Notes under the pieces: generated by a model
The model's database searches: none
Told to the model about the DNA's origin: nothing
Seen by the model: only the letters and a program-made list of their open reading frames with translations
Position numbers and translations under genes: made by a program
Shown: one piece after another, positions 16,288 to 18,272 of the stretch
Position numbering within the stretch: position 1 is the first letter of the stretch
How the letters are laid out: the number at the start of each line of letters is the position of its first letter
Assembly: GCA_019058315.1 (NCBI GenBank)
Contig: JAHPZH010000002.1
Coordinates: 640,001 to 704,000, forward strand
Length of the DNA: 64,000 bases
Reading direction: 5' to 3'
Source of the DNA: Candidatus Helarchaeota archaeon
Lineage (GTDB): Archaea; Asgardarchaeota; Lokiarchaeia; Helarchaeales; RDOG01

Positions 16288-16692
16288 TTATTTTAATTTT
16301 TCTAATTCCCTTAAACCAATAGCCATTTTACTTGATTCTGCTATCATTGAACTAATTAAAATGGTTTCAAATATTTGATCTTTTGTTGCACCAGCTTGAA
16401 GTGCTGTTTTCATGTGAACTTCTTGACAATATTTACATCCAAGAGCAACTGCTGCTGATAGCGCAATGAGTTCTTTAATTTTTAATTTCAATCTGGATTT
16501 ATTTTCTTTAATAACACTTTGATTTTTCATAAACTGAGTAAGAATCATCTCATCATTATAATTTGCCATTATTTCATAAATCTTAGGAGTTAAGCCATAA
16601 AATTCTTTAAGAAATTTTAAAATTTCAGAAGAATATTCTGAAGAATTATTTAATATCTCATTCATTTTTTTGAAAAAATCGCTTATTGACAA
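16288..16692 (-). CDS. Carboxymuconolactone decarboxylase/AhpD family protein
   Basis: KIKELIALSAAVALGCKYCQEVHMKTALQAGATKDQI. Confidence 0.88.
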   Translation of the reverse strand: MSISDFFKKMNEILNNSSEYSSEILKFLKEFYGLTPKIYEIMANYNDEMILTQFMKNQSVIKENKSRLKLKIKELIALSAAVALGCKYCQEVHMKTALQAGATKDQIFETILISSMIAESSKMAIGLRELEKLK

Positions 16693-16769
16693 TTAAACAC
16701 CTCGTTGCCTTATTTATTATTTTTAACCTTATAATTACCAAGTTAAGATATAGGTTTATTCTTTCATTT

Positions 16770-17365
16770 GAAACTTCGATCTCGGTCTAGAACTCCTGTA
16801 GAGGAACGTTTGAGGGTTAAACATCTATAAAAAATTTAGGTTTGCGATTTGGCATAACGACTAAGGGGATACTTTTTTTACCCTTAATTTGGTTCGAATT
16901 TCTTCCTCGAAAAGCGTTTAGTTTTCTAAACGCTTTTGACCCTATGAGTCTCGGTTGGAAACTCAATAGGTATTTTTTGATCAAAATCTCTGAATCAAGG
17001 TAATCAGTAAGTTTAAGCCTTTCATCGACCCTATTGTCTAAAAATTTAGGCTTTATGACTTCTTTTTGATTCCGAATAACATCATAGTCTTTGATTATTT
17101 CAGCGGGCTTGTTATTTTGTAGTGGAATCATCAAATTATAACAGGTTGCTTTAACTGGTTCCCCTCCAATAGAATACCCGAAAAAAAGCTTTTCAACATA
17201 ATTAAATTTGTGGTGATAATTATTATCGATGAATCCAATAATTATTAAATAAAGTCCAACTGCAAACAAAGACCCATTGTTCTCTTTCAAAAAGAAATCA
17301 CCACAATACTTACCTTTGTTTTTTGTTTGAAAAAACCAAGTAATATGCGGATATTGTGGTGGATA
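16770..17365 (+). ncRNA. Candidate large structured non-coding RNA or leader (unclassified)
   Basis: At least eight helices, including a perfect 12-bp hairpin at 16910-16937. G-U pairs favour the + strand. Ends in a 10-bp stem plus a T-rich tract. Boundaries are approximate. Confidence 0.5.
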
Positions 17366-17462
17366 TTTTCTTTTTATATATAGATTAAAAAATCAAAAAA
17401 ATGAGTTTATTATAAACGTAAATAATTATTTCCAAATCTTGAAAGTATCTTTTGAGGTGAAT

Positions 17463-18272
17463 ATGTTTATGTGTCCTGAATTTAAGACTGTTCTTTATGA
17501 AAAAAAGAATGCTGTAGCTGTCATAACTTTAAACCGTCCTAAAAAATTAAATGCTTTGAATTCTCAGATGAATAAAGATATAAAATATGCTTTTAAAGAA
17601 GCCAAAGAAGATAAAGAAATCAGATCTATTGTTCTTACTGGTGCTGGACGAGGTTTTTGTTCTGGAGCTGATGTTTCGGACTTTTCTGGGGGTGTAACAT
17701 TGAGGGATTTTAAAAAAATGACCGAAGAAGGAGTAACACCTGAAACCATTATTACACCGTATGATCTATTGGATGTTCCTAAACCTATTATTGCAGCAGT
17801 GAATGGAGTAGCGGTAGGTTTTGGAATGAATGTACTCCTAAACTGTGATATTATTTATGCATCTGAAGATGCTACTTTCGGAGAATTTTTTATTAGAATG
17901 GCTGTAATTCCCGATATGAATGGAAGTCTCCTATTACCCATGTTAGTTGGAATTCATAAGGCCAAAGAATTGATTTTTACTGGTGATAGAATTGATGCTA
18001 ATGAGGCATTACGAATTGGGTTGGTGAATAAAGTATTTCCAGCAAATCAGTTGATGTCTGAAACAATGAAATTAGCAAATAAATTAGCTGAGGGTCCTCC
18101 TCTTGCTTTAGCAATGTCAAAGAAGATAATTCATGAAGGGTTTAAAAAGGTATATGATACAATGCTTTTAAAAGAACTTCAATATCAAACGAAATTATAT
18201 ACTACGAGGGATCATAGAGAGGCTGCGATGGCATTTCTAGAAAAAAGAAAACCAAAATTTAAGGGGAAATGA
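17463..18272 (+). CDS. Enoyl-CoA hydratase/isomerase (crotonase) family protein
   Basis: ITLNRPKKLNAL, LTGAGRGFCSGAD, PKPIIAAVNGVAVGFG and AFLEKRKPKFKG. GAGGTGA Shine-Dalgarno sequence supports a start at 17463 or 17469. Confidence 0.92.
   Translation: MFMCPEFKTVLYEKKNAVAVITLNRPKKLNALNSQMNKDIKYAFKEAKEDKEIRSIVLTGAGRGFCSGADVSDFSGGVTLRDFKKMTEEGVTPETIITPYDLLDVPKPIIAAVNGVAVGFGMNVLLNCDIIYASEDATFGEFFIRMAVIPDMNGSLLLPMLVGIHKAKELIFTGDRIDANEALRIGLVNKVFPANQLMSETMKLANKLAEGPPLALAMSKKIIHEGFKKVYDTMLLKELQYQTKLYTTRDHREAAMAFLEKRKPKFKGK

Follow-up and report, generated by a model that had tools for sequence, protein, structure and literature searches.

A conserved element on the minus strand of a Helarchaeota contig

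Within the 64,000-nucleotide stretch of Candidatus Helarchaeota DNA analysed here (the window), we identified a conserved element of about 620-630 nt that comprises, on the minus strand, a 5' untranslated region (UTR), an open reading frame (ORF) for a basic orphan protein and a conserved 3' tail (Table 1). Synteny is conserved: the ORF has a divergently oriented ferredoxin-like gene on one side and, on the other, a class I methyltransferase gene that runs in the same direction, and the element is always located upstream of, and co-directional with, a methyltransferase or CMD gene. Nucleotide alignments of nine copies are nearly gapless across the element; conservation extends past the ORF on both sides, from ~17365 to ~16745, and begins and ends at the element's borders. 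Public annotation of the ORF gives a hypothetical protein only, or a product truncated to an internal ATG. The initial annotation, made from the plus strand, had described a densely structured intergenic element with mutually exclusive helices and had proposed either a large non-coding RNA or a switch-like leader for the downstream enoyl-CoA hydratase gene.

Table 1. Features of the conserved element and of two genes beside it. Positions are those of the window, and features of the element are listed in the 5' to 3' direction of the minus-strand RNA.
Feature	Position	Strand	Remarks
Whole conserved element	16741..17369	-	5' UTR, ORF and conserved 3' tail; about 620-630 nt
A/T-rich, TATA-like region	17370..17400	-	Upstream of the element; putative promoter
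Anti-SD 1, CACCACAAUA	17352..17361	-	5' UTR; pairs with 17299-17308, perfect 10 bp in the window
H1, 5' arm, ACUUGGU	17335..17341	-	5' UTR; pairs with 16961-16967, 7 bp
Shine-Dalgarno (SD), GGUGAU	17297..17302	-	Sequence-based; GAGGTG motifs upstream of neighbouring genes
H3, 5' arm	17288..17301	-	SD tail, spacer and TTG start; pairs with 17055-17068, 14 bp
ORF	16817..17290	-	157 codons and TAA, TTG start; orphan basic protein; open in 9/9 copies
H5, 5' arm	17226..17240	-	Codons 17-21, IIGFI; pairs with 17120-17134, 14 bp, one bulge
Anti-SD 2, AUCACCACAA	17208..17217	-	In the ORF, codons 25-28; pairs with 17297-17306, perfect 10 bp in the window
H5, 3' arm	17120..17134	-	Codons 53-57, LMIPL; pairs with 17226-17240
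H3, 3' arm	17055..17068	-	Codons 75-79, QKEVI in the window; pairs with 17288-17301
H1, 3' arm	16961..16967	-	Codons ~108-110, LLS; rare codons TAC, CTA and AGT invariant in the window, L003 and L004
Hairpin inside the ORF	16910..16937	-	Perfect 12 bp in the window (16910-16921/16926-16937); conserved
Conserved 3' tail	16741..16880	-	With A-run (16873-16879) and invariant CUUAG (16861-16865)
CMD-family gene	16288-16692		Flanks the element in the window/L002/L006 subgroup only
Enoyl-CoA hydratase gene	17439-18272		Flanks the element in the window/L002/L006 subgroup only

The nine distinct copies all come from Helarchaeota-type MAGs and metagenome contigs, the only sources in which relatives were found, and belong to one narrow clade; the additional copies were obtained from protein-database searches alone. 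A profile search of seven genomes of the order matched the element's own genome only, BLAST against 400 genomes of the phylum returned short chance matches only, scans of metagenome contigs gave no further copy, and an 18-mer scan of genome contigs produced chance matches in unrelated taxa only. The neighbouring methyltransferase was not found in the five related genomes searched. In every contig long enough to show its neighbours, the syntenic position of the element is identical. In the deeper lineages (L003, L004, L050 and L052), its immediate neighbours are the ferredoxin-like gene and the methyltransferase gene. The CMD and enoyl-CoA hydratase genes look like later insertions beside the element, since they flank it in the window/L002/L006 subgroup alone. 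We additionally noted an 859-nt ENA contig (L007:1-859) that closely matches the window's element from codon 54 on, with 92% protein identity; its first ~440 nt are unrelated and contain another ORF, and the contig represents a chimeric assembly or, alternatively, a rearranged copy.

We also searched for known families to which the element might belong. At the gathering score, Rfam, with its RNase P RNA, SRP RNA and group I/II intron families, matched nothing in the 64-kb window, and a permissive search of positions 16600-17500 gave best E-values of 0.28-8, to unrelated miRNA and snoRNA models. The RNase P RNA of this genome was found at C5:112710-113080 (158.8 bits) and its SRP RNA at C10:11707-12014 (95 bits), and both identities were rejected for the element because the two RNAs sit elsewhere. 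A MITE, repeat or other mobile element was likewise rejected: the element is present once in its 5.8-Mb genome, at a fixed syntenic position. The initial annotation had found no RNase P or SRP consensus motifs either, and had named the copy number as the way to exclude a MITE.

The minus-strand reading frame is maintained

In this DNA, with a G+C content of about 30%, the minus strand has a stop-to-stop frame of 191 codons (16817-17392). Within it, all nine copies begin at the same TTG (17288-17290 in the window), with the SD sequence GGUGAU 6 nt upstream, at canonical spacing, and continue for 133-163 codons. When the variable alignment columns were permuted, a mean of 6.6-7.5 stops was expected in this frame, and the probability of finding none was 1e-4 to 6e-4 per sequence; the remaining five frames contain 9-17 stops per sequence. 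The sole indel in the ORF core is an in-frame 3-nt deletion in L051, and the alignment of the ORF is otherwise gapless although divergence reaches about 40%. Because the frame is kept open from one TTG, its only core indel is in frame and its synteny is fixed, we conclude that the reading frame is, on this comparative evidence, under selection.

In addition, the columns predicted to be unpaired retain a coding pattern, invariance being highest at codon position 2, lower at position 1 and lowest at position 3 (27%, 18% and 8%, respectively). Among unpaired codons, pN is significantly lower than pS in the pairs window-L002, window-L051, window-L052 and L051-L052, and about equal to pS in L003, L004 and L048. 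Over the whole ORF, dN/dS ranges from 0.35 to 1.0 and substitutions are spread nearly uniformly over the codon positions. The initial annotation had called the region intergenic and had seen no protein-like features in its overlapping 157-codon ORF. Neither description holds for a frame that stays open in nine of nine copies from a TTG with its own SD, with so low a probability of lacking stops and with a 2 > 1 > 3 pattern of invariance. The purely non-coding reading likewise fails, on the criterion that the same annotation had set for its own proposal, protein-level conservation of this ORF.

The TTG lies inside the long-range helix H3 (described below) in all nine copies, and RNA pairing may therefore be what fixes this start codon. 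Public gene calls in L049, L050, L051 and L052 begin instead at an internal ATG, at profile position 54 or 67, and in doing so drop the conserved TTG start together with the N-terminal 53-66 residues.

Synonymous sites of the ORF are constrained

We compared substitutions between the window and L003 and L004, the two most distant long contigs. Third codon positions account for a smaller share of substitutions in the ORF than in neighbouring genes (0.35 versus 0.56-0.80), pS is lower (0.38-0.46 versus 0.62-0.80) and pN is higher (0.35-0.39 versus 0.08-0.20). Consistent with this pattern, among residues identical in the three deep lineages (window, L003 and L004), 31 of 37 amino-acid-invariant degenerate codons (84%) are also codon-invariant, compared with 330 of 857 (38.5%) in four neighbouring genes (Fisher p = 4e-8). 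The conserved codons include the rare C-ending TTC, ATC, CAC and TAC, as well as CTA and AGT, in an AT-rich genome.

This constraint is concentrated where the RNA is predicted to pair. Invariant third positions make up 10 of 18 in the three nested long-range helices, compared with 10 of 115 outside them (p = 1.3e-5), pS climbs to 0.51-0.67 in unpaired codons, and amino-acid conservation peaks where the nucleotides are paired. We attribute the extra nucleotide-level constraint on the ORF to the fold of the minus-strand RNA that is modelled below. The locus would then carry two overlapping codes, protein and RNA structure, in a single gene, with pairing fixing rare codons, the TTG start and even the choice of amino acids, as in L052, where an I-to-F exchange restores a base pair. 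For annotation, the lesson is that the synonymous sites of this ORF are not neutral, so that standard dN/dS tests would misjudge it.

Predicted long-range helices enclose the translation-initiation region

Folding energies of the 596-nt stretch originally annotated were better than those of dinucleotide-shuffled controls on both strands, with single-sequence z-scores of -2.23 for the plus strand and -4.32 for the minus strand. RNAalifold consensus energies were compared with alignments in which columns had been shuffled, a null that preserves both the gap pattern and the variability of columns, and gave z = -6.8 for the 5' domain with five sequences, -9.3 with eight and -9.2 with nine. The plus-strand consensus fold also beats this null (z = -8.9). 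The view of the initial annotation that the element is densely structured, with mutually exclusive helices, was thus borne out (consensus z of -6.8 to -9.3), and this structured element is conserved.

A repeat search of positions 16740-17370 recovered the main features that had been listed by eye, namely the 12-bp hairpin at 16910-16937, both 10-bp pairings of 17297-17308 and the recurring short motifs (TCTCGGT... at 16780/16949 and AAAAATTTAGG at 16830/17040). It additionally revealed a long-range inverted repeat of 14 bp (17056-17069/17287-17300), which was absent from the initial list. How well the listed helices are conserved varies: the 12-bp hairpin and the SD/anti-SD pairs are retained, whereas CCUAU-GAGU/ACUC-AUAGG pairs in the closest relatives only and is broken in L003 and L004, and the GAAUCAAGG/UUUUGAUUC pair is absent from both consensus folds.

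The predicted nine-copy consensus fold consists of nested long-range helices and local hairpins, with the long-range helices spanning up to about 370 nt and reaching deep into the coding sequence. In helix H3, 97.6% of cells are paired across the nine copies, and the third positions of codons CAA AAA GAA in its 3' arm are invariant in the window, L003 and L004. H3 also contains one compensatory change, from U-A to A-U in L052 at the cost of an Ile-to-Phe exchange, while several other changes give U-G pairs. Helix H5 is paired in 91.3% of cells, and the codons ATT ATT GGA TTC ATC of its 5' arm are invariant in the same three lineages. Helix H1 is paired in 96.8% of cells, with six pairs that vary on one side only and keep their pairing. 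In the hairpin at 16910-16937, ten pairs are conserved in the nine copies and three of these have changed on both sides.

Over the whole fold, which was predicted from the same nine-sequence alignment that we used to test it, 90.5% of cells are paired, compared with 41-50% when partners are slid by 1-3 columns. Changes on both sides occur in ten pairs, a count reached in 2 of 500 shuffles; as most long-range pairs are invariant, direct covariation rests on few events in nine sequences. The minus strand is favoured by the number of consensus pairs (71 versus 37 on the plus strand) and by the proportion of cells paired (90.5% versus 75.6%, a difference of 15 percentage points). On the minus-strand fold, G-U cells outnumber A-C cells by 107 to 12, an asymmetry that leans towards the strand of prediction.

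A block of 19 nt that includes the SD shows no change among five copies and almost none among nine. Two further pairings engage the SD region and are mutually exclusive: that with anti-SD 1, which is paired in 77.8% of cells over the nine copies and is present in the minus-strand MFE fold, and that with anti-SD 2, which is paired in 97.8% of cells, with one change that results in a U-G pair. The mutually exclusive 3' helices of the initial annotation are therefore real but misplaced, as they lie at the 5' end of the minus-strand RNA, where an SD is flanked by two anti-SDs. Similarly, the U-rich tract reported to follow these helices is the complement of an A/T-rich, promoter-like region, and every copy has A/T-rich motifs 20-45 nt upstream of the first conserved block.

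The protein product resembles no known family

The product is 133-163 amino acids long, depending on the copy, and basic (pI about 9.7), with 57 conserved N-terminal residues followed by a variable basic remainder. Its N-terminus includes a hydrophobic stretch whose best 19-residue Kyte-Doolittle window scores 1.1-1.45, and the usual transmembrane threshold is higher. Searches with the product of Pfam, PADLOC and PDB profiles found nothing significant, and the ESM Atlas yielded no usable match. An AlphaFold2 model based on the nine-sequence alignment was of low confidence (mean pLDDT 38). To judge from the substitution patterns, sequence constraint on the product outside the helices is weak, and the RNA or the act of translation therefore possibly matters more than the product itself.

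A fold that may control its own translation

Conserved helices that bury the ribosome-binding site (RBS) and start codon of their own ORF suggest built-in translational control. We consider it probable that the element is the structured mRNA of an orphan gene, known so far from Helarchaeota alone, and that the fold of this mRNA locks the region from which its own translation starts. Because base pairs cover the SD, spacer and start codon alike in the predicted folded RNA, translation would be expected to be off, or very low, by default, and the weak TTG start, itself located within H3, is consistent with a low default level. Opening of the fold would require heat, a helicase, RNA processing or a trans-acting RNA, and the first translating ribosome would then melt H3, H5 and H1, freeing the start site. 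Maintenance of the ORF, constraint on its synonymous sites and conservation of the pairings are computational observations; we infer that the element is transcribed, that its translation is repressed and that a trigger would act on the fold.

An unlikely alternative is that the locus encodes mainly a structured RNA, confined to Helarchaeota so far and acting as a large non-coding RNA or riboregulator, or in a dual capacity, with the ORF kept open for the transit of ribosomes and the polypeptide largely irrelevant. Passage of the ribosome would, for example, remodel the fold, switch it between two states or couple it to the downstream CMD and methyltransferase genes, and the invariable position of the element upstream of and co-directional with one of these genes would fit such coupling. 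The very strong consensus structure, the peak of amino-acid conservation at paired nucleotides, the near-neutrality of unpaired codons in several lineages, the absence of a fold or family for the product and the persistence of nucleotide conservation beyond the stop and across frame changes can all be read in this way. However, every copy keeps an ORF of at least 133 codons with an SD at canonical spacing, the unpaired columns show a coding pattern of conservation, and pN falls significantly below pS in the four pairs named above. Moreover, nearly all of the nucleotide-level constraint resides in helices that involve the translation-initiation region, a location that favours translational control over a separate RNA activity. 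It is very improbable that the gene is instead an ordinary fast-evolving orphan whose constraint stems from DNA-level regulatory sites of divergent promoters, from codon bias or from recent recombination. The element does have divergent genes on its two sides, its 3' tail is conserved but lacks predicted structure, and nine sequences give covariation statistics little power. Against this, the complementarity among the invariant blocks far exceeds that expected from shuffled columns (z about -9), invariant synonymous sites cluster in helices, rare codons ending in C are retained in a genome rich in A and T, changes are G-U-compatible and in one case compensatory, and sequences about 40% divergent align with hardly any indels.

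The proposal of the initial annotation that the region is a plus-strand riboswitch-like leader or non-coding RNA controlling the enoyl-CoA hydratase gene now appears scarcely credible. Plus-strand RNA does fold above shuffles, both alone (z = -2.2) and as a consensus (z = -8.9), but such folding is expected in any case as the mirror image of a structured strand, and the plus strand falls short of the minus strand in conserved pairs and in cells paired. Furthermore, the SD, TTG and ORF are all on the opposite, minus strand, the element is also kept in L003, L004, L050 and L052 in the absence of the hydratase gene, and the hydratase gene of the window is preceded by an SD of its own and by an A/T-rich region, both within 17392-17438. 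We also weighed a module resembling type I toxin-antitoxin systems, in which a harmful membrane-active or basic protein would be encoded by an mRNA held inactive by its fold together with an undetected antisense RNA. In its layout the element resembles the aapA3 toxin mRNA of H. pylori, in which the SD is sequestered by two hairpins, in the 5' UTR and the ORF, that exclude each other, and a long-distance interaction traps the full-length mRNA in a translationally inert state, as has been worked out experimentally (PMC6733600, Masachis et al. 2019). Computationally, the same hallmarks, SD-sequestering hairpins and a long-distance interaction that lock the mRNA, are found here (77.8%, 97.8% and 97.6% of cells paired), and the product combines an N-terminal hydrophobic stretch with a basic C-terminal part. 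It is not a small hydrophobic membrane toxin, however, as type I toxins are typically under about 60 amino acids and this product has 133-163, with a hydrophobicity of only 1.1-1.45 at the N-terminus, below the usual transmembrane threshold. In addition, the genome contains one copy of the element, at a chromosomal site of fixed synteny among housekeeping genes, and PADLOC gave no match for the product. Membership of the type I toxin class is therefore not supported, and we regard a toxin module as improbable.

Comparison with known RNA-based regulators

Cis-acting mRNA folds that hide the RBS are well known in bacteria and phages; for archaea we are aware of almost no comparable description, and none of the papers found in our literature search reported such a fold for Asgard archaea. 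Translation control by mRNA folding is a known principle, of which the element is a candidate example in an under-studied lineage. In the archaeal lineage closest to eukaryotes, the locus offers a clean case on which control of translation by long-range mRNA structure can be tested.

The candidate self-locking mRNA shares with the aapA3/IsoA3 and hok/Sok systems its mutually exclusive anti-SDs in the 5' UTR and ORF and its long-distance lock, here predicted, as well as structural constraints that are imprinted on the coding sequence. Unlike those systems, the element is archaeal and single-copy at a fixed syntenic locus, its ORF has 133-163 rather than about 30-50 codons, and its long-range partners are internal coding segments, whereas theirs is the 3' end. 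Pairing of a start region with a distant coding segment is also known from the 'Min Jou' interaction of the single-stranded RNA phage MS2, in which passage of the ribosome opens the start. In MS2, however, the start region pairs with another cistron, located upstream, so that two genes are coupled, while the partner in the element lies downstream in the same ORF, an arrangement that would make it self-repressing.

With the large structured bacterial non-coding RNAs OLE, GOLLD, ROOL and raiA, the element has in common a length of hundreds of nucleotides, nested long-range helices, a narrow phyletic range and a fixed genomic context, and like the dual-function small RNAs SgrS and RNAIII it combines an ORF with a structured RNA. 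It differs from both groups in that its ORF fills almost the whole of the structured part and is under selection, that it has no Rfam match and that its helices are centred on its own initiation region. RNA thermometers such as ROSE and fourU similarly occlude the SD and start mostly by A-U and G-U pairs, and the pairs predicted here could possibly be melted by temperature; yet those thermometers are short local hairpins in the 5' UTR, in contrast to three nested helices that span up to about 370 nt.

The ORF end and the 3' tail

The 3' tail is conserved in sequence irrespective of the reading frame, and the position of the stop varies between copies. It shows no conserved secondary structure (z = +0.4), and its conservation has no explanation in the model of a locked mRNA. 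The A-run (a T-run on the plus strand, at 16873-16879) varies in length by 1-2 nt between copies, which shifts both the frame and the position of the stop. Four copies stop at the invariant CUUAG, three, including that of the window, read through for 15-21 more codons, and two stop earlier (L049 with TGA and L052 with TAG). A downstream stretch, 'PLV.MPN.K', falls in different frames in different copies while its nucleotides are conserved. We considered a programmed frameshift at the A-run, which is unsupported because the downstream frame has no coding signature and closes early in L004. Beyond the conserved tail, the deeper lineages have a run of six to nine T residues (L003:4540-4560, L004:4540-4560, L051 and L052) that could, from its sequence, be an archaeal oligo-T terminator. 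The window/L002/L006 subgroup does not have this T-run, and in these copies read-through into the CMD gene seems possible.
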